Shown in pieces: positions 2,870-23,451 of a DNA stretch of 30,984 bases; position 1 is the stretch's first letter; each line of letters starts with the position of its first letter. Below the pieces are notes generated by a model that saw only the letters and a list, made by a program, of their open reading frames with translations, was not told the DNA's origin and made no database searches. This DNA comes from a virus (Duplodnaviria > Caudoviricetes). A program made the translations under genes and the position numbers. The DNA lies in IMG/VR virus record IMGVR_UViG_3300031673_000322, positions 1 to 30,984 of that record; one strand, given 5' to 3'.

Positions 2870-3228
2870 TGCCACCTGAATATGTAACAAGAGATGAATG
2901 TAAAGATACTAGCGGGAGAATTTTATCTCTTCTTCAGGAAATTAATGCCCGTCTTTATAAAGACAATGGAACAAAATCTCATCAAACTTTAATCAATGAA
3001 CAGGGAGTTGCTATAACTGAACTTGCCAAAGCGATGACAAGTTACAAGGAAACGGTAATTGATCACGACCGACTCTTAGTGGGATACAAGACAGTATCTC
3101 TTCTCGGTTTGTGGGTATTGAGAATTGCTGGTGGAGCGTGTGTGTTAGGATTAATAACGCTTATTGCCCTCGCAATTAAACACGCCCTTATCAGCGAAGC
3201 GGTTAAGCAAATGTTCGGGGCTAGTTAA
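2869..3228 (+). CDS. Coiled-coil protein with C-terminal TM segment (holin/haemolysin-like)
   Basis: Start re-called to ATG 2869 because of AAGGAG RBS; hydrophobic LLGLWVLRIAGGACVLGLITLIALAI. Confidence 0.6.
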   Translation: MPPEYVTRDECKDTSGRILSLLQEINARLYKDNGTKSHQTLINEQGVAITELAKAMTSYKETVIDHDRLLVGYKTVSLLGLWVLRIAGGACVLGLITLIALAIKHALISEAVKQMFGAS

Positions 3229-3229
3229 A

Positions 3230-3427
3230 ATGAAATTTGAAATCATTGAACGATTACCGTCGCTGGGAGCAAGGATATGGGAGATCAAATGCCTGTCCTG
3301 TGGAGTCAAATTTAACTACGACAGCAACGAACCGCATAACTACGGTTTGGTTGTATGCACAGGGAAATGTCACAGTACTGAACGATGGAAAGCTGCAAAA
3401 GCAAGATACGATAAGGAGAAAGAATGA
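3230..3427 (+). CDS. Small zinc-ribbon protein
   Basis: ATG 3230 next to the upstream stop; CLSC...CTGKC; ATGA overlap with the next gene. Confidence 0.6.
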   Translation: MKFEIIERLPSLGARIWEIKCLSCGVKFNYDSNEPHNYGLVVCTGKCHSTERWKAAKARYDKEKE

Positions 3428-11524: not shown

Positions 11525-13060
11525 ATGGCATATCCAGTATATCAGAGGAGAGAGCAAGTACAATATCCTGACCCGAAGAACATGGTTGTCAACTGGTCGA
11601 GAGCTGCGGACAAGATTACTGAGGGGATCACCGAGGGGATCAGTCTGGGAATGAAGATAAAAGAAAGCAAGGAAAAATCTGCCATGAACCTTGCGAACCT
11701 CAAGTCCCTCGATGTAGCCACAAGGACAAAGCAGTTCGAGCTTCAAACAGCGGAGATGAGAAGGGCGGCCTTGTTGAGAATGGACGCTTTGACTGAAAAA
11801 AATTTAGATGCTCAAAATCAGATAAACTATAGTGCCTCCGCTATTTCAGCAGCACAGGCAAAAAGTGCCATGCAAGCAAAAATGAACGCTCAGGATCTTC
11901 AAGCACTTGAGATCAACACTCAATACCTAGACCCAATAGAAGATATTATTAATAACGCATCGGTAATGGAGGCACGGATAGCACAGGTTGGCGACCCGTC
12001 GGTGGCATATCAATATCTCAACGATGCAAAAAAGGAAGTAGACGAGTTACGGGGCAAGATAGGGATTAATATTTCTACTTTTGCCCAGCGACTTAAAAGA
12101 GGAAAGAACGACGCTCGGGCGGATCAAATATCAAAACTTGATCCAATTGTTCTGGAAGAGAGGTTTTTGGGGAAGGTAATGGTTCCTATATATACGAACG
12201 AGCTTAAAAAATACGACTATGGTTTATATGCCGGGGGAGACATTGGCGACATCGAAAAGCCGACTGCAATTACCACAACATCGGTAACTATGGTTCCGTG
12301 GACTGTTGCGAAGAATTACTGGCGTGGCAAAATGAGTACAGAAACTTTTGAGTCCGTAAGAGAGAGTGCGTCTAATCCTGAAAAGTTTGATAAACTAGCA
12401 AGGGAGCAGGGACTTGGTCATTTACTTCCCAAGGTTGTAACCCCAGCAGTAGGCGTGGACGGAGTTCCGCTCGATCTTAAATTTATGAAGCCAGCAGGCG
12501 AGAACGAAACAATATCGGAGCAGGCTAGAAGGGAACTGGTTCTGGCTGGCGAGAAAAGTCCCCTTAATGTAGCAACAGGATCAATAACTCAAAAGTTAAG
12601 CGAAAAATTAACTACTCACGAGTTCTCCGTTGTAAGTGGGCTTATAAATCCGGGTACGGGATTACTCTCCTATTCTCCTGCTATAGCAAGAGAGACGGGA
12701 AGTATTGTTAAATGGCTGGCAGAAAAAACTGGAATTGGGATAGAAGCGTCGTATAAATTGCATGATAAAATAAAAAACATACTTCCAAGGGCTGGAGAAG
12801 CGACAAAAGCGTTTAGGGGCAACCCCGCCAATGTAGAAGCGGAAAATAAATTCTGGGAAGGAAGGCGTAACGATTTGTATGCGGAATTACCCACCGCCTC
12901 CCCCGCCCGTAAGGCTGTTATTAATGAGGCGATCGGGCTTATCAATCAACAACATCTAAAGCCACAGACAGAATTTCCCGACGAAGCATCTGCAAGAGCT
13001 TATGGATGGAAGACTGGGGATACTATAACTATTAATGGTCGCCCGGGAACCTTAGACTAA
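11525..13060 (+). CDS. Internal virion (DNA ejection) protein
   Basis: AAGGAG RBS; GITEGISLG followed by coiled coil; C-terminal KTGDTITINGRPG motif. Confidence 0.6.
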   Translation: MAYPVYQRREQVQYPDPKNMVVNWSRAADKITEGITEGISLGMKIKESKEKSAMNLANLKSLDVATRTKQFELQTAEMRRAALLRMDALTEKNLDAQNQINYSASAISAAQAKSAMQAKMNAQDLQALEINTQYLDPIEDIINNASVMEARIAQVGDPSVAYQYLNDAKKEVDELRGKIGINISTFAQRLKRGKNDARADQISKLDPIVLEERFLGKVMVPIYTNELKKYDYGLYAGGDIGDIEKPTAITTTSVTMVPWTVAKNYWRGKMSTETFESVRESASNPEKFDKLAREQGLGHLLPKVVTPAVGVDGVPLDLKFMKPAGENETISEQARRELVLAGEKSPLNVATGSITQKLSEKLTTHEFSVVSGLINPGTGLLSYSPAIARETGSIVKWLAEKTGIGIEASYKLHDKIKNILPRAGEATKAFRGNPANVEAENKFWEGRRNDLYAELPTASPARKAVINEAIGLINQQHLKPQTEFPDEASARAYGWKTGDTITINGRPGTLD

Positions 13061-13061
13061 A

Positions 13062-16000
13062 ATGAGCATCACATTTCTTGATGAAGCACCATCTCAAAAT
13101 AAAGGCATTACTTTTCTGGACGAGAGTTCAGGGGTAAATCCTAACCCCAGCGTTCCCCTCACTCAAAAAACTCGTGACGCCGCTGGCGGTGGCAAGCCAG
13201 AAGATGGTGGATTCTTAAGCGACCTTTCCTTGGCAGGCAAGGTGATCGGGACTGGAGTCTACTCCGCCTTTGCCGATATGTTTCCGAAGATCCTCGCCGA
13301 GGCAATCCGTGCTGGTGACATCGACACAGACACCGCCAACACCGCCCTCGACCGCTGGATTCAGGAACAGAAGAAAGACCTCGAGCGTTGGGATCTCACG
13401 GAAGCCGAGAAGAACGACAAGTTGTTCGGGATTATCAAGGCACAGGATGTATTGTCTGGATTACAGAATCTCGGCTATTCCGCTGCGATTGGGGTAGCTG
13501 GTATGGTAGGCGGTGCTGCGATTGGATCTTTGGCGGGGCCAGCAGGAACGGTCGCAGGAACAATAGGCGGAATAGCAGGGGGGGTAGCTGGTGCGGGAGC
13601 CATTACCTTCCCTGTGATGTATAGAGCCACCAAGGATCAGTTTTTGGCTGATATGCTCGACAAGGCACAAAGAGAAAAGCCAGATCTCACCGACGCCGAA
13701 TGGAACGAGATGAAGGTTGCTCTGGAGTCCGACGCCCAGATGTACGCCTTTTGGGAGGCAGCCCCTGAGACGGTCGGCAATATGATCACCGCTGGTATCA
13801 TCAAGACCCCAATCGGCTCGATCCTGAAGCGTATCCCTGATATTAAGAACATCATCTCACGCACCCTCGCAACGGCTGGCACTAAGATCGCACTCGATAT
13901 TCCTGAGGAGTTGGCGACAGAAACTCTTACCCAGTATCAGCAGGCTAAGATCGAGGCAAAGCCTGAGGTCGGCTTGCGTGACAAGGCACCCACGATTAAG
14001 GAAGCGTTCACGGAGATTGCTCCTCAGGTTCTTGTGACCACGATTGCGGGGCTGGGAATGGGATCAGTTGCATCCAGAGCGTCCGAGGTCAGGCAGGAGA
14101 TCAACTTCCACCAACGGCTTAGTAAACTGGGATATGAACCCAAAGTAATCAGGGATCTCTCCTCGAAGATCGGCTTTGACGAAAGTGCGTTACGACTTGC
14201 TGAGCAAAACGCTCCTGTAGTAGCTGAGGCAATCAACAACAATATGTTACCCTCGACCATAGGAGAAATGAAAGGATCCCTGCTCCCGAGTCTTGTGCTG
14301 ACGACCTACAACAATGCCAGCGATAACGGGGCAAATCCTACCGCTGGCAGGGCTGCGGTCGAGGAACTCGTTCGGTCGGATAATTACAAACGCTTCCAGA
14401 AGCTTTTGAGACAGGCACGGGTAGATCAATCAGCAAAGAAAAAAGGAGGCAAAGATGCCGAAGGTACTAGAGGACAAGCTGAAGAGAGAGGCAAAGAAAC
14501 GAGGGTACGGGAAGAAGAAGGCAGGAGCGTATATTTACGGTACAATGCGGAAAACAGGCTGGAAGCCACCGAAGGAACAACATCAGACTTGGAGAGAGAA
14601 ACACGAGAAGCGAAGGAAGCGGAAGAATTAGCGGTGTCCTCGTCCATTCCAACCACTAAAGTTAAAAAAGGGCAACAGCCCATTACGACTAAGGGAATTA
14701 GGGCGGGGACACTTCCGCAAGTTGAGCCAGCGATAATGCAGGCGATACAAAAGGACGAGGCGGTTAACAGGATTGGTCTTGCGAAACCACCGCCCGTGCG
14801 ACCAATTGGTGAAGCCAAGTTTGCAACCACGGCTGAAGAGGCGACTCCCGCCGTCACTTCGTTTATTGAGAATATAGCAGGTCAGGGGCGTACCTTGCCT
14901 GTAAGTGAGAAAAGACCTGATGCCGACGCCGTCATCCTTACCGGGGTCAGGGTAGACCTTGCTCCAGACGGCAACAGGGTGCGGATTATTGACATGAAGG
15001 CGTTTGAACCCGGGCAAGGGGATCTCGTCAACCTGATGAGGATGCTGAGAGAAACCGCACGGGATACCAATGTTGATCTGGTGGTTACTCCTGCTGGAGA
15101 TAGTGCCGCACAGAAGAGTGCGGTGACTACATGGTATGGAGAGAACGGTTTTATACCCGAACCGAACGGCGATATGATTTTCACGCCAACAACAACCGAA
15201 CCACAGGAAGCCCAGAAGCAGGCGTTTATGGCTAGGGCAAAAAAGAGGATCAGGCTAGTCGCCGAGGCACGACCCGCCGCAAGGTCGTATGCATTCAGTC
15301 GATTTACGAATTCGCCTATGTCCGAAAAGGAGATTGAGGATGAGTCGGATAAGGCACTCGCCAAGGCAGTCGCAACCTTTGATATCGACAAGCCCAACTT
15401 TACGAGCTGGATGAAGACAGTTGTATCCCAGAGTCTCCAGAACTACATAGACAAAGTAAACAATGCAGCCAAGAGAGAGCCTTCGACAGTAAGTTTCCAG
15501 ACGCCAGTTCGGGTCGGTGCAACAGCGGAGGGCGAGGCGGTCGAGGTAAGTAAGGATGTATCCGAGATAGTAATGGAGAAGGGCAACCCGAGGGACATCG
15601 TAATGTCAAACGAGTTCTGGGAGGACTGGAAGAGGTTGCTGGGGGTTTGGGGACTTGAGGGCTTGTCAGAGACCAGAAGAAAGGTTATGGTTCGTCATTT
15701 AGAGGGGATGAATCACGCCACCATCGCAAGGGAACTTGGCTTCGATCAGACCAAGGTCGAGAGGGAATACGCTGGTGCCACGAAGCAGTTCAAAGAATTT
15801 CTTGATAATCATGGCTTCGTGGAAGCCGAGGCTCAGCAGGTATTGGCGGAGGTAAGAACGAGAGATGTATTTTATGGAGGATTAAAAGATGACACAGCAA
15901 GACCAACAGAACAACCAACCAAGCAGCCGAGTAAACGACCTAGTGAACAACCTAGCGGACGAACAGTCCCCCGGGGAGGACAGCCCGTCCAACGAGTCGG

Positions 16001-19000
16001 AGAGCCATCCGTCGCTGGTGAAACTGAAGAGCAAAGACGGCAAAACCGTAGTGACATTCTCCGTACGGGTTGGAACGCCTTACGAAGACTCAGACGCAGA
16101 GCAAGTGCAAAAGGCAATACAGGCTGGGATGCTCCCGTTGTAGACCTTATCCGTGGGGCAGAGCCAGTCTTCAAAGACCTGAGCAACAGGGCGGTAGAGA
16201 TTACCGACATATTTGCCCAAGAAGGATATACCGCCGTCTTCATCCATAACCCGCTGGTTAGGATATCCGCCGTGACGATGGCGGACGAGAAGGTTGTCGT
16301 CTTTAACCAACGGACAATCGACAGCTCCCATGAATTATTCCATGTTAAGATCAATAAGGGTGACGCAGGGGCGATGGCGATCCTCAAGTTTGTCAGGGAC
16401 GAGTGGGGTGTAAGCAATGATATGTTCACAAAATATCGCCTCGGGATGGCAAAGTCCCTGAGGACTGATATCGCCAATATTTCCCGAGAGAGGGTCGAGG
16501 AGGATATCGCAGCTGATTACTACCAAGCCACGATAGATAATAGGCTGTTCTCCCGCAACAATGTCGAGTTCTTTGGGATGGTGACCATCGACAGGCTGGC
16601 TGGATACCCAGAGACAACCCTCCCTCCGTACATTACGGAAGGGGAGACAGGTGAAATAAAAAGTAGTCCTCCTGCACCCAACGCCTTCCAAGATGGTAAG
16701 GACGCACAGGAGATAACTCGCAAATACGGAGATGCCACAGGATCCATTGAAGACATTAAATATGCCGTCAATAATAAATATACCATGAAATCATTCCCAA
16801 TACCCGTCGGACAACTCGCCACGCTCGATGAGCTGGGCAAGCCACTTTCAAATGTATTTAGTGCTGAGGCACAGATATTGAATCAACTCTTCCCTAATTT
16901 ATTCAAGGGAGACCCATCTAAACTTAGCATTATAGATTCCATTAATGTTATCCGAAAGGCTAAAGCAAACGGAGACCTTGCTGATTTTATGACAGGGAAA
17001 CGCATTTCTGATAATAGCATTATATCTTGGAGTGGTACTCAGGCGTCCAACACTATAAGAAAAGTAGAAGCCTCTTCGTTCAGAAGGATGAAACCAAACG
17101 AGCTTACTGGCACGGGCGGATTTTGGACAAAGAACATTAAGACTGGACTCTCCCTTGACTTTGCCTTGTCGTCCTGTGTTCCTACCGCCGCCTGTCCACG
17201 ATGCTACGCGGCGTCTGTCATTCAGTCCCACACATTTCAACAAGTCAATTATTTCAGAAACCTTCTCTGGGCGATCCACGATCCCAACGCTTTTGCTGAT
17301 GCTTCTTTGAAGGAATTAAAGGGTATACATTCGTCGATGACAAAAGAATCGTTAGCTTCCCTCGGAGGAATGCATATTAGGTTCAATGCATTCGGGGATA
17401 TAGGATTCAAAGAACAAGTGCAAGCCATGAACCGCATCATAGAAGGTATGCCACAGGATACAATCGCAGTTATCTTTAGTAGAAATCATACGGCACGATG
17501 GAAAGGGCAGGGTGCTTTGGATCAAATCGTTGTTCCAAAAGGAAAGAATGTAATCATAAATGCCTCGGTAGATCGCCAGCTCGTGCGTGAGTATGGCATT
17601 TCAGCACTCAAGAAACTTCCAAAGAATTGGAATATATCCTACCTTTATGTTGGCGAGGAAGATATTAATGTTTTGAGAAAACTTCTTAATGCCGATCTAT
17701 TCCCGATCATACACATCGACAAAGATGACTACAACAATGATAGCATACGGACATCTCTCAAAAAGGCTTATGTTGATACTGGGTATGAAGCAAATACTGA
17801 CACAGCCACCGTCTGCCCCTGCTCAGTAAGATTCCAGCCTCAGGCATCCTCGTGTGTGCAATGTCAAAAAGGTACGCACGGTTGCTTCCGTATGACAAGA
17901 GTGGCGGTCAATAATAAACTTGTGAGGGGTGCGGCGTTGGCGAGAGTAATGGTCTCGTTAAAGAAGACAAGAGACGAGTTGAAGGTCGATAAAAAAGGAA
18001 AACAAAAGACCAGCCCCATCAGGTTGTGGGATGGAGCCTTGGTAAAACCATTATCTATTATCGAAAGAAATCCCAAGAATATTGGTAGGGCAGAAAAATA
18101 TATAGAACACCTCGGAAGAACCGTCGAGCAACTACAGACCGAAAAACCACAGGCAGTTGCAAAAGCGACTGAGATCGTGAGCGGAAAGATTCAGCCGACG
18201 GTTAAGTTCGCCGTCGAGGAAAGTCAATTAGCCGACGGATCAATCATAATGGAACAGCCTAAGTTCGCTGTTACTTCTATGCCTATTGAGGAAGCGAAAA
18301 ACGACGAGTCTGTTTTCTGGCACGGTTCACCAAGCGGAGACCTTCGTGGATCAGCCAATGGTCTTCATATTGGAACATACACCGCAGCAAAGCAGGCTCT
18401 TGAAGCACGGATCGGGGTACCCGCAGTCGGCGAATGGGACGGAACAAGAGAATACGGAAAGACTCTCATCGCAGGGAATAAGACATTGAAAAAAATTGAT
18501 CCAAGAGGATACAACCAAACTGGATTTAATATTGAAGCACCAGAGGAAGATTATTATCCTACTGGAAAGGCAGAGTACAGCGACAGGACGCCCGTAGCGA
18601 TGACGGCAACGCCAAGCCTTAGGGCGTTTAGGATCACGGGCAAAATGAGCAATACTCCTCAGAACGCCTTGGAAGATTTTAAGGCAAACGCTGTGATGCG
18701 TGGGCAAATAACACGGGGAATGGCAAGGCGGGGATATTTTTACGAAAATGTTGGAGAGGATGAGGGATCTATTTCCGCAGTAATTCCCGCCTCTTCTCAT
18801 ATCGAAGAGATATCACTTACCGAAGAACCCAAGACCGCCGTCACCTCCACCGAGGATCAGGTGTATTACCACGGAACGCAAAGTGAGTTTGCCGAATTCA
18901 GCGATAAGATAACGAATATCAATGCCTATGGCAAGGGGTTCTACTTTACCACGGACAGACAGAGTGCCGAACGATATGCAAAGGCAGAAGAGGGTGGTCG

Positions 19001-22000
19001 CATACGGACAATCAGAGGAGAGCGTCCCAGAGTAATTTCTGCCCGTTTAGAAATCAAAAAGCCGTTCGTTATGGGGCAGGGACTCGTATCGAACGAAGAT
19101 CTCGCCACGATCAATTCCATTGCTGGCTGGGAACTCGGCCCATTTGACGAATCATATAAACCCACAGCAAATGCCGTCTGGTCGGAACTGGTTATAAACT
19201 CCACGGGAGACAAGGCGACTACAGCAAATCAGATTCTCCAGAAAGCAGGATTTGATGCCATTGTCGCCCCAAAAGAAACCATCGTATTCAAACGAGAGCG
19301 GATATTGGGTCAGCAAAGCGAAGATGTAAAATTCGCTACCCGTGCCGTCACCCCCGCCGAGGATCAGGCGTATATGGATGCGGTCGAGAAGGGTGACACA
19401 GCGACTGCCCAGAGGATGGTGGACGAGGCTGCGAAGAAGGCATGGTATGACTCCGAACCAGTTTATCACGGTAGTCCTCATGCTGGTTTCACTAAATTTG
19501 ATATCCCATCTAAAGGGTACAATAGTAATGTGCTTGGATCTTGGGATGTTGAGCGTAATGTAGCCTTTTTTACTCCAGATAAAAACGCAGCGGCTGGATA
19601 TCAAACCCAAGGAGGAAGAACTTCTGGAGAAACTAGAAAGTTTTATTTGGATGGTGAGTTCGCCGATCTTCGCAAAGGTATTAGCGAAGCAAGGTTGAAC
19701 ACGCTTGTTGATAACGGAGTTAACGAAAGGTTTTTATCTCAAAAAGGAGCAAGCTGGGAACTATTTGATAAAGAACAAGACCCAGATGGAACTATAGTTA
19801 AAGCATTTAAAAAGATGGGGTACGACGGGGTAATTATTCACGATACAGACGGAATAAATGATTTTGATTCTTATGCCGTCTTCTCCCCCTCCCGCATCAA
19901 GTCTGCCGACCCCGTCACCCGTGACGACGCTGGCAATGTAATCCCGCTGTCCAAAAGATTTGATCCGAAGAAAGAGGACATCAGGTACGCCGTTGAGGAC
20001 GATGCCATGGTGGACGAGATGGTTCCGCCTGAGGACATAGAATATACCACGGAAGAAGCCGAAGCTGAAGCCGAAGAGGAAGCCGCCCCCGTTTCCGAGC
20101 AAAAACCATCCCGCACGGCGTTGAACATCTCCCGGGACACGCAGGGGATACGGTCTGAAGATTTGAGGGCTGAATTTGTTGACATCTTCTACGAGGTCAA
20201 GCCTAATGTGGTGCTGATTGACGAGGTTATGTCGATACTTAGCACCGAGGGTATAAACAACGCCCGTGAATTGTACTTTAACAGAGGTTCGAGGATCACC
20301 GCCGACCAGAGGGTTCTCCTCGGCTTTATCCTGATGAAGACTCACGACGACGAGGCACAGGCGGTTAGGTCTACCAATCCAGAACTCTCCGACAAGCACT
20401 ACGACATGGCGGTGGATATAGGGCTGGAATTAGACGAGATTAACCGTGAGTACGGTCGTGCGGTTCAGGCGAATGCAATTATGTGGCGGAGCGTCCTTGC
20501 GACGCCAGCAGGGGCCGAGAGGTTCATGAGGAAGATTGTCAACCGCTACGCCGACTCGGTAATGCAACGGCAAGATGTCAAGGACTTGGTGTTGGGATAC
20601 CGTCGAATTACCGAAGGGGCCGCTGGCGAGGTGGTTAACGAGCCGTATATCCAACAGAGAATTGCCAATGTCCTCGAGATGATCTCCTCGGAGCGTGAAA
20701 AAGAGCTGACAGGATATCTCGCAAACGATGAAAAAATGAAGGTGGCACAGGAGACCCTCTCCTCGGAGGAGACTGAGATCCCTGCTGGAATATCACTTGC
20801 CACAGAGCAGTCAGAGGAGCTTACCCTTGACGAGAAGCTCGGGATGTTTGCCAGATACGGTATGGGCTTGATCATCAAGGGAAGGATCAGGACGCTCAAT
20901 GAGTTCTCAAAGGCAATGACCGAGAATATCCCAGATCCCAATTTGCCACAATATATGGGAAGAATCTACAACGACGCAAAGATCAGGGCGATGGATCGCA
21001 TAGCCCGTGGTGCAAGAAAGGCGACGAAGGCGGAAACTAAGAGAGAGAAAGCGGGCGGAAGGGATGTCGCCAGGCAGGTTAACGCCGTCCTGAGGGAATG
21101 GGCTACTGGCAGCCTGACCGCCGAGCCTCGAACAATCATCGACAGGCTTGCCCAGCTTGGCGTCTCCGAAGCCAGAGCGACAAAGCTAATGGACGCTACC
21201 CGTACACGCTTTGCTGAGAGGACTGTGAAACGCAGGGCGGATTTCCTCAAGAAGTTTACGACAGGCAGGAAGATCGATCCTGAGACACAGAAAGCATACA
21301 AGAATATTACAGAGCTGGCTAGCCGTGATGATCTAACGGACGAAAATGTCCGTGACGCCATCGTCACAGCATTTGATTTGCCCGACCCAAAGAGCGAGAG
21401 GATCAGAACCCGGGTAGCCAAACTAGCAAAGGCCATCAAAGACGCTCCCGAGGGATTTAAAAAAGACGATGAAGTCCGCAAGATGCTTGACTTTATCAGG
21501 ACGGAGATGCCCATAGCAAAAATGGATGTGGTGTGGTCGCTCTGGTATGCCAACATCCTCTCTGGATACCAGACCGCCGAGCGTAATATGGCTGGTAATT
21601 TATTCAACTTAATAAGCACACTCACGGCATCGATAATTGTCGAGCCACGGAACGCCCCTGTCGCCCTCTGGGGGTTCGTGAAGGGTGTAGGCTCCGGGAT
21701 GAGAGCTGCGTACAATGTAATGAAGACAGGGAGCTTCCCTATCCGTGACGAAAAGTACGAGCAGTCGCAGGTTCTTGAGTTCTTTCCGTTCCGTGGGATG
21801 ATGAAGGTGCTATCCAACTGGAAGTATGTGCTTCGCTCCCTGCAAGCAGTCGATATGCTGTTCTACAAGGCTGGGCAGGAAGCTCGTGCAATGATGCTAG
21901 CGGCGGACATCGCCCGAACGGAGAGCGAGACACCAGCGGATAAAGTATGGGAAAGGGCGGCTGAATTAACTGGGCTATCAAAAGATGTTCAGGCAAAGTA

Positions 22001-23303
22001 CAGGGCAATTGCGATAGCAGAAAAGTTTAGAGGCAACGAAATCGAACTGAGGGTTCAGGAACTTGCAGAGAGGAATCGCCCCGAGGAGATTACTACCGAG
22101 GCAACCGACTACGCCAGACGGGTGACATACAACTATCAGCCCGAGGGGCAACTTGGGATCCTCGCCAAAGGGATATCAGAAGTTTCCAAGTCTGTGCCGA
22201 TGCTGAGACTGGCGGTACCTTTCACGAGGATCGTTGCAAATGTCGGCAACACGACGATTGACTATACTCCTTGGGGCTTCGTACGGGCGATCCGTGGGAT
22301 GCGTGATCTAAAAGGCAAGCTGACTCCAATGACAGGTCATCGCCGTGCGACTACGATGGCAAAGGCTATGATGGGAACCATAGGAATGGTGTCCGCTTAT
22401 ATGGCAGACAAGATGCAGGGAGATGATGACGATGAGGACAAAAAGACCTTTGCGATATATGGCTCTGGGCCAAGTGAACTGAACAAGGCGTATCAACTGC
22501 GACAAACTGGATGGCGTCCTTACAGCTTCAAGTTTGGGAAACGGTATTTCGACTACCGCCTGACCCCGCTGGCGATCCCGTTTGCCATCATCGGGTCGAT
22601 CCGTGACGCCGAACGCTGGCACAAGCTGGATGAGAAGAGCAAATGGCAAAGAGCTTCGTATGCCACCCTGAAGTCTGGATCGGTCATATTTGATATGTCC
22701 TTCCTGTCTGGAATCAATCAGGTTATGACTATGTTGCAGTCAGGCACCTCGGAATCGAGCGGAAGGAAGTTGCAGAATTATCTGATCCGCAATGCGAGTT
22801 CGGCGGTACCAGCGTTGTTCAAGCAGATCGACAGGACATTCGATTCCCAGATCCACGACAACGCAACGATACAGGAAGCGTTGCTTCGGGAGTTGCCTGT
22901 TGCGTCCCGCCTTGTCAGACCGAAACTGAACCTGCTCGGCGAACCAGTCCCGCAACTGACTGGGCCACTCTCCATCTTTATCAGCGATAAGCAATCCGAT
23001 CCTGTATGGAGATTCATCGCCAACAAGGAAGTCTTTATCAGCAAGCCTCCGAAATCCACGACGGTCGGCAGGGGCAGAAGGAAGCGTATGATGACCGAAG
23101 AGGAGTACTACACTTACATACAGACATCAGGAAAGATGATCCGTAATATGCTGGAGAGAACCCACACCAAATTAGAGAAGATCAAGGATCGTGACAGGAT
23201 CGAGAAGATCGTGGACAAAGCCGTAATAAAAATACGATCCAAGGTGAAGCGAAAGATCTACATCGACAGCGTAAGAGCGAGGAGGAGATCAAGTGCCATC
23301 TGA
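13062..23303 (+). CDS. Giant polyvalent virion/ejection protein (3413 aa): Gly-rich TM, GNAT, sigma-70 r2+r4, HExxH peptidase, GP88/radical-SAM-like, 3 ADP-ribosyltransferase-like modules, LPD38-like C-terminus
   Basis: Motifs EPGQG..WYGENGF; FTSWMKTVV..IARELG; HELFH..EEDIAAD; CVPTAACPRCYA..IRFNAFGD; WHGSP, YHGT..GFYFT, YHGS..GYDGVI; PFTRIVAN. Confidence 0.85.
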   Translation: MSITFLDEAPSQNKGITFLDESSGVNPNPSVPLTQKTRDAAGGGKPEDGGFLSDLSLAGKVIGTGVYSAFADMFPKILAEAIRAGDIDTDTANTALDRWIQEQKKDLERWDLTEAEKNDKLFGIIKAQDVLSGLQNLGYSAAIGVAGMVGGAAIGSLAGPAGTVAGTIGGIAGGVAGAGAITFPVMYRATKDQFLADMLDKAQREKPDLTDAEWNEMKVALESDAQMYAFWEAAPETVGNMITAGIIKTPIGSILKRIPDIKNIISRTLATAGTKIALDIPEELATETLTQYQQAKIEAKPEVGLRDKAPTIKEAFTEIAPQVLVTTIAGLGMGSVASRASEVRQEINFHQRLSKLGYEPKVIRDLSSKIGFDESALRLAEQNAPVVAEAINNNMLPSTIGEMKGSLLPSLVLTTYNNASDNGANPTAGRAAVEELVRSDNYKRFQKLLRQARVDQSAKKKGGKDAEGTRGQAEERGKETRVREEEGRSVYLRYNAENRLEATEGTTSDLERETREAKEAEELAVSSSIPTTKVKKGQQPITTKGIRAGTLPQVEPAIMQAIQKDEAVNRIGLAKPPPVRPIGEAKFATTAEEATPAVTSFIENIAGQGRTLPVSEKRPDADAVILTGVRVDLAPDGNRVRIIDMKAFEPGQGDLVNLMRMLRETARDTNVDLVVTPAGDSAAQKSAVTTWYGENGFIPEPNGDMIFTPTTTEPQEAQKQAFMARAKKRIRLVAEARPAARSYAFSRFTNSPMSEKEIEDESDKALAKAVATFDIDKPNFTSWMKTVVSQSLQNYIDKVNNAAKREPSTVSFQTPVRVGATAEGEAVEVSKDVSEIVMEKGNPRDIVMSNEFWEDWKRLLGVWGLEGLSETRRKVMVRHLEGMNHATIARELGFDQTKVEREYAGATKQFKEFLDNHGFVEAEAQQVLAEVRTRDVFYGGLKDDTARPTEQPTKQPSKRPSEQPSGRTVPRGGQPVQRVGEPSVAGETEEQRRQNRSDILRTGWNALRRLRRRASAKGNTGWDAPVVDLIRGAEPVFKDLSNRAVEITDIFAQEGYTAVFIHNPLVRISAVTMADEKVVVFNQRTIDSSHELFHVKINKGDAGAMAILKFVRDEWGVSNDMFTKYRLGMAKSLRTDIANISRERVEEDIAADYYQATIDNRLFSRNNVEFFGMVTIDRLAGYPETTLPPYITEGETGEIKSSPPAPNAFQDGKDAQEITRKYGDATGSIEDIKYAVNNKYTMKSFPIPVGQLATLDELGKPLSNVFSAEAQILNQLFPNLFKGDPSKLSIIDSINVIRKAKANGDLADFMTGKRISDNSIISWSGTQASNTIRKVEASSFRRMKPNELTGTGGFWTKNIKTGLSLDFALSSCVPTAACPRCYAASVIQSHTFQQVNYFRNLLWAIHDPNAFADASLKELKGIHSSMTKESLASLGGMHIRFNAFGDIGFKEQVQAMNRIIEGMPQDTIAVIFSRNHTARWKGQGALDQIVVPKGKNVIINASVDRQLVREYGISALKKLPKNWNISYLYVGEEDINVLRKLLNADLFPIIHIDKDDYNNDSIRTSLKKAYVDTGYEANTDTATVCPCSVRFQPQASSCVQCQKGTHGCFRMTRVAVNNKLVRGAALARVMVSLKKTRDELKVDKKGKQKTSPIRLWDGALVKPLSIIERNPKNIGRAEKYIEHLGRTVEQLQTEKPQAVAKATEIVSGKIQPTVKFAVEESQLADGSIIMEQPKFAVTSMPIEEAKNDESVFWHGSPSGDLRGSANGLHIGTYTAAKQALEARIGVPAVGEWDGTREYGKTLIAGNKTLKKIDPRGYNQTGFNIEAPEEDYYPTGKAEYSDRTPVAMTATPSLRAFRITGKMSNTPQNALEDFKANAVMRGQITRGMARRGYFYENVGEDEGSISAVIPASSHIEEISLTEEPKTAVTSTEDQVYYHGTQSEFAEFSDKITNINAYGKGFYFTTDRQSAERYAKAEEGGRIRTIRGERPRVISARLEIKKPFVMGQGLVSNEDLATINSIAGWELGPFDESYKPTANAVWSELVINSTGDKATTANQILQKAGFDAIVAPKETIVFKRERILGQQSEDVKFATRAVTPAEDQAYMDAVEKGDTATAQRMVDEAAKKAWYDSEPVYHGSPHAGFTKFDIPSKGYNSNVLGSWDVERNVAFFTPDKNAAAGYQTQGGRTSGETRKFYLDGEFADLRKGISEARLNTLVDNGVNERFLSQKGASWELFDKEQDPDGTIVKAFKKMGYDGVIIHDTDGINDFDSYAVFSPSRIKSADPVTRDDAGNVIPLSKRFDPKKEDIRYAVEDDAMVDEMVPPEDIEYTTEEAEAEAEEEAAPVSEQKPSRTALNISRDTQGIRSEDLRAEFVDIFYEVKPNVVLIDEVMSILSTEGINNARELYFNRGSRITADQRVLLGFILMKTHDDEAQAVRSTNPELSDKHYDMAVDIGLELDEINREYGRAVQANAIMWRSVLATPAGAERFMRKIVNRYADSVMQRQDVKDLVLGYRRITEGAAGEVVNEPYIQQRIANVLEMISSEREKELTGYLANDEKMKVAQETLSSEETEIPAGISLATEQSEELTLDEKLGMFARYGMGLIIKGRIRTLNEFSKAMTENIPDPNLPQYMGRIYNDAKIRAMDRIARGARKATKAETKREKAGGRDVARQVNAVLREWATGSLTAEPRTIIDRLAQLGVSEARATKLMDATRTRFAERTVKRRADFLKKFTTGRKIDPETQKAYKNITELASRDDLTDENVRDAIVTAFDLPDPKSERIRTRVAKLAKAIKDAPEGFKKDDEVRKMLDFIRTEMPIAKMDVVWSLWYANILSGYQTAERNMAGNLFNLISTLTASIIVEPRNAPVALWGFVKGVGSGMRAAYNVMKTGSFPIRDEKYEQSQVLEFFPFRGMMKVLSNWKYVLRSLQAVDMLFYKAGQEARAMMLAADIARTESETPADKVWERAAELTGLSKDVQAKYRAIAIAEKFRGNEIELRVQELAERNRPEEITTEATDYARRVTYNYQPEGQLGILAKGISEVSKSVPMLRLAVPFTRIVANVGNTTIDYTPWGFVRAIRGMRDLKGKLTPMTGHRRATTMAKAMMGTIGMVSAYMADKMQGDDDDEDKKTFAIYGSGPSELNKAYQLRQTGWRPYSFKFGKRYFDYRLTPLAIPFAIIGSIRDAERWHKLDEKSKWQRASYATLKSGSVIFDMSFLSGINQVMTMLQSGTSESSGRKLQNYLIRNASSAVPALFKQIDRTFDSQIHDNATIQEALLRELPVASRLVRPKLNLLGEPVPQLTGPLSIFISDKQSDPVWRFIANKEVFISKPPKSTTVGRGRRKRMMTEEEYYTYIQTSGKMIRNMLERTHTKLEKIKDRDRIEKIVDKAVIKIRSKVKRKIYIDSVRARRRSSAI
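14455..14631 (+). CDS. Nested +1-frame 58-aa basic protein inside the giant gene
   Basis: AGGAGG RBS 5 nt before ATG; MPKVLEDKLKREAKKRGYGKKKAGAYIYGTMRKTGWKPPKEQHQTWREKHEKRRKRKN. Confidence 0.65.
   Translation: MPKVLEDKLKREAKKRGYGKKKAGAYIYGTMRKTGWKPPKEQHQTWREKHEKRRKRKN
15889..16143 (+). CDS. Nested +1-frame 84-aa acidic protein inside the giant gene
   Basis: GGAGG at 15876-15880, 8 nt before ATG; overlaps a low-complexity linker of the giant protein. Confidence 0.5.
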   Translation: MTQQDQQNNQPSSRVNDLVNNLADEQSPGEDSPSNESESHPSLVKLKSKDGKTVVTFSVRVGTPYEDSDAEQVQKAIQAGMLPL

Positions 23304-23451
23304 TAAGAAAGAGATAAGGCAAGCCCTCGAGCGAGTGGCGAAGGCGAACGGCACCGATGTGTACACGATGGTGCGGAAGATGATGCTCAAGTCGCTGAAG
23401 GATTTGGAGCCGACGGCAACCCCGCCCAAAACGCCCCCGCCAGCTAAATAG
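23293..23451 (+). CDS. 52-aa ribbon-helix-helix-like protein (not in ORF track)
   Basis: GGAGGAG RBS, GTG start; KEIRQALERVAKANGTDVYTMVRKMML resembles the RHH helix pair. Confidence 0.55.
   Translation: MPSDKKEIRQALERVAKANGTDVYTMVRKMMLKSLKDLEPTATPPKTPPPAK

Follow-up and report, generated by a model that had tools for sequence, protein, structure and literature searches.

A nested open reading frame in a phage polyvalent-protein gene belongs to an undescribed family of small basic proteins

The IMG/VR record IMGVR_UViG_3300031673_000322 (Duplodnaviria; Caudoviricetes), analysed here over positions 1 to 30,984 and called the window below (30,984 nucleotides, nt), carries a gene for a giant polyvalent protein of 3,413 amino acids (aa). 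Within this gene, in its +1 frame, lies a 58-codon open reading frame (ORF) with a ribosome-binding site (RBS) of its own. Is the short frame a gene, which of the two overlapping readings came first, and what would the small product do? Embedded genes are a known kind of arrangement; the one nested here is a member of an undescribed family of phage proteins, and it is very probably a real, maintained gene.

The nested frame and its family

The nested gene (14455..14631, + strand) runs from an ATG at 14455 through 58 sense codons to a TAG at 14629-14631, in the +1 frame of the ORF at 13062-23303, and the overlap corresponds to residues 465-523 of the 3,413 of the giant protein. A Shine-Dalgarno (SD) sequence, AAGGAGG (14443..14449, + strand, with AGGAGG at 14444-14449), is separated from this ATG by a 5-nt spacer (CAAAG). 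The start signal, the 58-codon ORF and its translation, all reported by the first-pass annotation, agree with the sequence coordinates. The anti-SD duplex of the nested start (-11.6 kcal/mol) ranks second of 25 window starts tested. The predicted unpaired fraction of the SD is 0.65; among 82 further +1-frame ATGs in the giant gene, 3 attain as much. A small ORF that carries its own start and RBS and is wholly enclosed, in the +1 frame, by a longer ORF is also the layout of embedded same-strand pairs of the Rz/Rz1 type.

Taken alone, the nested ORF and its RBS are not significant, because comparable ORFs (SD of at least seven bases and a +1-frame ATG ORF of at least 40 codons) arise in 12.4% of 500 synonymous-codon shuffles of the giant gene; the proposal that ORF plus SD is significant by itself was rejected on this ground. 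The nested site stays open for 58 codons in 37.8% of 500 such shuffles. A scan of 12800-16400 returned 4 promoter sites (2.5 expected) and 3 terminator sites (3.4 expected), and the nested start has none of them nearby. An assembly artefact was also rejected: the overlap is spanned, without difference, by contigs from three runs, two of which may be the window's own source.

Judged from sequence, it is homology, and not the bare ORF or RBS, that puts the nested gene beyond chance. A search with the single peptide sequence matched 12 of 12 candidates (E 1.7e-13 to 8e-5), and a family profile of 62 members accepted 2,146 of 2,344 candidates (720 representatives at 50% identity). The homologue search that had been proposed as a check on the 58-aa peptide thus returned relatives by both routes. 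Against the profile the window peptide scores 70.6 bits (E 1.7e-23), compared with a median of 72.7 and an interquartile range of 67.6-76.1 for non-nested members. Scans of DNA, from each of which at most 80 stretches were kept, also confirmed the family: in viral DNA, 113 of 161 stretches passed in one scan and 174 of 179 in another, with 510 of 557 from metagenomes and 18 of 20 from genomes. A pattern scan added at least 119 family loci. In the ESM Atlas the peptide adjoins unnamed clusters at a score of 0.93, two of the top three being recorded as viral.

The family, unnamed and recognisable by the pattern YGT[ML]RKxGWxP, is highly conserved. Among 150 representatives at 50% identity (those listed of the 720, from a search without seeds), the most constant positions are L9 (100%), G29 (99%), W36 and P38 (98% each), P2, E6 and G35 (96% each), Y28 (95%), R32 (94%) and T30 (92%). 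The M-P start and L9, Y28, G29, T30, R32, G35, W36 and P38 are all present in the window peptide. These positions fall in a conserved core, residues 1-38 (14455..14568, + strand), followed by a variable basic C-terminal tail, residues 39-58 (14569..14628, + strand), which is unconserved in the 62-member alignment.

No match for the peptide was found in Pfam or PHROGs, nor in NCBIfam (six proteins searched, four of them relatives); PDB sequences gave a single chain at chance level (E 0.083), and 50,697 deposited phage records gave none at E 0.1. A literature search, with subscription papers mostly outside its coverage, turned up nothing on the family or its motif, and nothing on nesting within genes for polyvalent proteins. 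The searches define a family of more than 2,000 small phage proteins that has no Pfam, PHROGs or NCBIfam entry.

Gene neighbourhoods place the family mainly in the late head module. For 80 stand-alone loci, 150 of the 160 nearest long neighbours were scanned against PHROGs, and by the authors' own tally 32 loci lie beside head or packaging genes (portal, head-tail adaptor, terminase, scaffold, head protein), 5 beside tail or virion genes, 9 beside genes of DNA metabolism or integration and 8 beside genes of other or unknown family, with no hit at 26. Portal, terminase and scaffold are the commonest named neighbours. With 32 of 80 loci beside head and packaging genes, the family is therefore chiefly, though not solely, a late head-module gene. 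Some members are longer: 17 of the 150 representatives exceed 150 aa, and in 15 of these the domain stands at the N-terminal end of a Gly/Ala-rich protein in which a helical motif recurs. The fusion partners matched no Pfam or PHROG family above cut-off, save an EFG_C fragment in one protein. In P0188, P0215, P0229 and 12 similar proteins, the domain heads Gly/Ala-rich proteins of 200-480 aa that share an internal block.

Nested copies and the direction of the overlap

A census was made from 369 sequences (368 loci plus the window), of which the 364 with a profile hit formed 205 clusters at 85% DNA identity. A copy was called nested when another frame had no stop within the core or within 150 codons (or up to the locus end) to either side of it, and spanned at least 300 codons altogether. 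By this definition, under which short loci may be misclassed, 12 of the 205 clusters are nested, all in the +1 frame of the host and none in the other phase, and 193 are not nested. The non-nested clusters have short open frames in the host phase in 26 cases and in the other phase in 21, with one cluster in both, and 147 are closed in both phases. The likeness to small stand-alone phage proteins that the first-pass annotation had suggested is confirmed by these counts, and its description of a captured gene fits a nested frame from a family that mostly stands alone.

All 12 hosts are long ORFs; the complete ones have 1,527-3,413 codons, and the others run off the end of their locus. None of the nests lies within a portal or terminase gene. 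Polyvalent domains above cut-off are found in four hosts: ART-PolyVal in the window and in locus L171, LPD38 in L190 and ddrB-ParB in L242. A DarB-like PHROG match is found in L242 and L266. Through such matches some of the other hosts, too, resemble polyvalent proteins. Host flanks, taken as 150 residues on either side of the nest, have no BLASTP match to each other at E 0.01 among the 12 hosts, and with the nest masked just two host pairs align anywhere, both far from the nest. In the nine ungapped nested cores (36 pairs), the mean number of differing residues is 15.3 of 36 for the peptides and 24.3 for the host frame.

All 12 nested copies retain ATG or GTG at family position 1, and an SD of at least five bases precedes 9 of these starts. 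The corresponding figures are 94 of 192 for starts that are not nested and 29 of 487 for the remaining +1-frame ATGs of the hosts. The nested starts bear on a possible frameshift, by which ribosomes on the giant gene would reach the +1 frame and make a 465-residue product with a basic tail, with no initiation of its own. An A6 run just upstream and a +1 frame that is open for 23 codons ahead of the ATG would suit such an event; the A-run, however, is absent from the other nests, and the retention of the start codon in 12 of 12 copies and of the SD in 9 makes a frameshift highly improbable.

The small gene would be the old frame and the host linker the newer reading, because the small frame has thousands of relatives whereas the host stretch resembles just other nests. 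A host-frame profile of nine nests found six long proteins among 8,000 candidates, apparently nested hosts or their close relatives; the search is a weak one, and the host-frame alignment over the nests is too variable for DNA scanning. In classical overprinting, as the part of PMC8227390 on such overlaps describes it, the +1 frame is created de novo and usually has no homologues. The present overlap is internal and in the +1 frame, as in classical overprinting and in the remodelled genes of E. coli. Unlike in classical overprinting, the nested frame has thousands of homologues, and the signs of that process, a new nested frame without homologues over an ancestral host frame, were not found. 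The label "overprinted" in the first-pass annotation is therefore not borne out, and the direction appears to be opposite to the usual one, with an old small gene and a new linker of a long gene.

How the overlap may have formed is suggested by the clusters that are not nested. In 20 of them a long upstream frame in the host phase enters the small gene by 2-23 codons, and in 7 of the 20 by 18-23 codons. In the other phase 17 of 20 long upstream frames end at the start of the small gene, and none continues beyond 9 codons; this frame stops most often near codon 8-9 of the small gene, where the invariant Leu followed by Lys would tend to spell TGA or TAA one base on. Early stops in the other phase would therefore account for the 12:0 phase bias without special selection. 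Under the scheme proposed here, the small gene would at first be a free-standing late gene, and its DNA, read one base upstream of the small frame, would give a hydrophilic string with few stops. Loss of these stops would then let the upstream virion gene read through the small gene and join the gene downstream, and in the host protein the stretch would serve as a passive linker. That an ORF can spread over its neighbour through stop loss is described for out-of-frame remodelled genes in E. coli (PMC8788219). Engulfment by read-through of the upstream gene is likely, and it has probably occurred more than once. Copies of the one gene that stand alone, are overlapped in part or are nested in full make up a natural series in which the origin of an overlap becomes testable.

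Two known systems invite comparison. In spanins, Rz1 is an outer-membrane lipoprotein with a lipoylated Cys and Rz is a small type II membrane protein. A spanin identity was rejected for the present pair, as the peptide has neither a Cys nor a hydrophobic signal and the host is a protein of 3,413 aa with ART-PolyVal. According to passages of PMC5295617, Rz1 of lambda is embedded in the +1 frame of Rz and maps onto a mutationally silent, linker-like stretch of its host, and separated Rz/Rz1 architectures are seen in some phages. The pair in the window is alike in that a same-strand gene lies wholly inside another, in the +1 frame and over a linker-like host stretch. It differs in that Rz and Rz1 are partners in one spanin complex, whereas here the host is about 60 times as long as the guest; unlike Rz1, the guest lacks both Cys and a lipoprotein signal. 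Elsewhere it mostly stands alone, and as a nested gene it occurs in many long hosts with unalignable flanks. The polymerase spacer of hepatitis B virus is hypothesised, in section 8 of PMC8227390, to have arisen de novo over the short S gene, linking two genes. As in that hypothesis, the small gene would be the older and the linker of the long protein a new reading that joins modules. The spacer, however, would have arisen once, in an animal virus whose genome measures 3.2 kb, whereas the present case concerns a tailed-phage family with all three states. Annotation tools suppress embedded genes, as is noted in the literature on overprinting and out-of-frame remodelling (PMC8227390, PMC8788219). 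To judge from the present case, low-complexity linkers in giant phage proteins may in part be out-of-frame traces of real genes dropped in annotation.

Maintenance and product of the nested gene

In the window copy the start, SD and stop are intact, and there is no sign of decay. Differences at codon positions 1, 2 and 3 between the window copy and non-nested copies (11.7/9.6/24.0) resemble those among non-nested copies (12.7/9.9/23.7). Drift constrained by the host alone would raise position 2, the wobble position of the host, and this position is not in excess; the window copy thus appears free of such drift. A closer comparison is available for L171, whose relatives came from a host-frame search. 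Between L171 and the relative P0134, with P0134 codons inferred from the protein sequence, the overlap has eight host residue changes, seven of which could be silent in the peptide frame, against a background of 67 silent-capable replacements among 245 reachable (p 7e-4). The eighth change is Lys to Glu in the peptide, at a position that is variable in the family. The other three relatives have 0 or 1 change in the compared part (32 codons for two of them, in which a small indel follows). In the L171 lineage the nested small frame is shown to be under purifying selection, and the same may hold in the window; the view that the +1 frame is the constrained one agrees both with this pair and with the codon-position pattern of the window.

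The nested frame is likely still translated from its own strong RBS. No RNA run was listed among those that carry this DNA, which speaks neither for nor against expression. One late mRNA would serve both frames, with weak coupled initiation giving the few giant chains that would be needed and frequent internal initiation at the strong SD giving many copies of the small protein. This balance is proposed because the nested SD is strong, whereas the start of the giant gene has no SD of its own and lies 1 nt past the stop of the upstream gene.

The predicted product is basic, with 22 of 58 residues K or R (15 Lys, 7 Arg) and a net charge of +16; the family median is +11 (106 short members). The peptide contains no Cys and no hydrophobic signal. 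An AlphaFold2 model has a helix at residues 3-16, a turn and a helix at 20-34 (mean pLDDT 85, pTM 0.52), after which the core ends in G-W-x-P. Given a real, maintained gene, a DNA-binding protein of the head is slightly favoured, in view of its charge, its predicted fold and the genes beside which the family lies. As the head fills, the basic hairpin and tail would neutralise the DNA or compact it, and the protein would be carried in the virion; the invariant glycine and aromatic residues would shape the fold and provide a specific site for binding. Small basic virion proteins that bind DNA, such as baculovirus P6.9 and the protamine-like core proteins, are short, strongly basic, Arg-rich and unstructured. 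The window peptide shares with them its short length, strong basicity and likely late expression, and differs in having 15 Lys beside 7 Arg and a core that is conserved and predicted to fold; the searches returned no link between the peptide and these proteins, in sequence or in fold.

Foldseek comparison of the model with the PDB and BFVD gave no match at E 0.001 or below, and VIA-align of 48,161 chains gave a best Z of 4.0, with none reaching 5; such weak matches do not establish a new fold. The Foldseek rows that were returned are mostly helix pairs of ribbon-helix-helix regulators. Members of this class, such as Arc and CopG, bind DNA and have an N-terminal strand that pairs in the dimer, followed by two helices. 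These rows, the basic two-helix predicted fold and the 9 of 80 stand-alone loci beside genes of DNA metabolism or integration might be taken to indicate a nucleic-acid-binding regulator or host-takeover factor outside the virion, for example a late regulator of translation or transcription. However, all the rows have E of at least 1.9, the monomer model lacks the strand, VIA-align reaches no Z of 5 and head-module neighbours outnumber the others by 32 to 9, so that a regulatory role of this kind is quite unlikely.

The strict conservation could also point elsewhere. Near-invariant L9, Y28, G29, T30, R32, G35, W36 and P38 would suit an interface more than bulk neutralisation of charge, and the small protein might be an adaptor or loading tag whose hairpin docks on portal, scaffold or procapsid and loads or chaperones cargo such as the giant protein. 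Consistent with this are the Gly/Ala-rich fusions headed by the domain (15 of 150 representatives), the confinement of all 12 nests to long ORFs other than portal or terminase genes, and the predominance of portal, terminase and scaffold among named neighbours. Neighbourhood by itself is, however, no proof of binding, the fusion partners match no Pfam or PHROG family above cut-off and apparently form one clade, and several fusions retain an internal Met just past the domain, as simple stop loss would leave. An adaptor is thus a possible but rather improbable function.

An engulfed member of the family, likely still translated from its own SD, with a two-helix product that likely binds DNA at the head, has as a whole about an even chance of being correct. 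Several observations weigh against it. Its repeated origin draws on unalignable flanks and a weak tree: with 45 of the 205 peptides, 44 columns and no starred branch, the tree rejects a single nested clade weakly (approximately unbiased (AU) test, p 0.039). Label shuffling on this tree gave 11 changes against a shuffled mean of 10.6, a biased comparison in which non-nested rows had partly been picked as neighbours of nested copies, and a non-nested sequence as the nearest to each nested copy is expected from the base rate. The L171 test uses one pair and inferred codons, and ignores transition bias. Scans of viral contigs with giant residues ~51-330, 301-623 and 2901-3334 returned the window's own record only or nothing, and the three runs show no variant in the overlap; with neither a close relative nor a variant, the selection claim for the window lineage is therefore an inference, and a recent capture that had not yet decayed would look the same as the window copy. 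In L247 the nested copy (100-237) has a nine-base SD and an ATG but carries a TAG at codon 10, and may be a broken copy (a pseudogene in the making) or a sequence error. The DNA searches were seeded on the peptide motif, to which decayed nests are largely invisible, and the 11 of 12 intact copies are an overestimate. As to function, 26 of the 80 neighbourhoods have no annotation and 9 are among DNA-metabolism genes, and no fold or family match from Foldseek, PDB sequences or VIA-align backs DNA binding.

Nested copies can break, as the in-frame TAG of L247 indicates, and the first-pass annotation had named two signs that would speak against a gene: the absence of homologues, contradicted by the thousands found, and stops in related phages, seen in 1 of 12 nested clusters. 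The window copy might then be a relic, a gene swallowed recently and by now neither required nor translated, whose DNA persists only as a linker in the giant gene. The stop in L247, the indirect evidence for selection in the window lineage and the preference of the search seeds for intact copies are in keeping with a relic, as is the ease of capture: in 26 of 193 non-nested clusters chance alone leaves the host phase without a stop across the core. On the other side, the start, SD, spacing, stop and profile score are intact, the wobble position of the host shows no excess of change, the small frame is under selection in the L171 lineage, and the record, estimated as 56% complete, holds no second family copy. 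A relic appears about as improbable as a regulator, and both, together with the frameshift, are less likely than a DNA-binding head protein or an adaptor.

The host gene and its relatives

The host gene (13062..23303, + strand) encodes a polyvalent protein that is likely packaged in the virion and injected, to judge from its family and context. It is a large multidomain protein with an enzymatic domain of polyvalent type, ART-PolyVal (PF18760, E 6e-23; 82.5 bits against a cut-off of 31.2), at residues 2133-2283 (19458..19910, + strand). Tail-fibre, tail-spike and holin matches lie upstream. In its great size, its ART-PolyVal domain and its position among late virion genes it resembles the phage polyvalent proteins treated in parts of PMC5512222 and PMC7824862. 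In the main text of PMC5512222 the words "overlap" and "linker" do not occur.

Residues 465-523, the host-frame reading of the nest (14454..14630, + strand), have an acidic, linker-like composition. D+E make up 30.5% against 13.6% in the whole giant protein, FILMVWY 13.6% against 29.2%, and Gly 8.5% against 7.0%. The first-pass annotation had described a low-complexity E/G/R linker, and its acidic part holds while its Gly part does not. No Pfam or PHROG domain matched the host frame over the overlap, and by its composition the stretch is probably floppy or disordered.

Relatives of L171 offer a view of how such giants may change. In L171 and four relatives the hosts are alike up to the nested stop codon, then carry three different cassettes, and are alike again at a second nest. 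The latter, at L171 6421 (5421-5522 in L010), is an SD-led (AGGAG), basic, Lys/Ala-rich +1 ORF of 33 codons; the host stretch over it is conserved in the four relatives while the preceding sequence is swapped. P0132, P0134, P0135 and P0137 share the N-terminal 640 residues and both nests with L171 and end at 833-977 aa; the L171 giant runs on for more than 2,668 aa. The C-terminal cargo of the giant thus appears to have been swapped or added shortly past the second nest in these relatives, and nested genes may serve as anchors for cassette exchange, in the five sequences of this one lineage. More tentatively, giants may grow by reading through small late genes that are still active, with the guest acting both as a homology anchor, because it is the sole DNA held constant in a hypervariable host, and as a partner in loading or co-ejection; this combined reading is doubtful.

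A second SD-led +1-frame ORF lies in the giant gene (15889..16143, + strand; GGAGG, 8-nt spacer) and encodes 84 aa that are acidic and polar, not basic. Two +1 ORFs with an SD of at least five bases and at least 40 codons arise by chance in 39% of shuffles. Among viral contigs this ORF has no relative beyond the window's own record, its best Atlas score is 0.80 (recognition 1995), no more than a lead, and it is at best a candidate gene.

Other features of the giant gene were seen in passing. Residues 767-925 resemble a sigma factor (PHROG 1740, E 1.5e-7), and residues 1369-1536 resemble GP88 at a score below the Pfam cut-off. Several hosts (window 13062-13130, L171, L080, L157, L242 and L263) open with a short acidic-aromatic motif in two or three repeats, a kind of start that presumably also occurs in phage ejection proteins. 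In short contigs of the runs, a relative about 90% identical is seen at 22810-23120, with differences mostly spaced in multiples of three; such a relative is thus present in these samples, though none of its assembled contigs extends to the overlap. Finally, a 52-codon ORF with a GTG start (23293-23451, + strand), preceded by the strongest SD of those tested, shares the final codons of the giant gene in its +1 frame.

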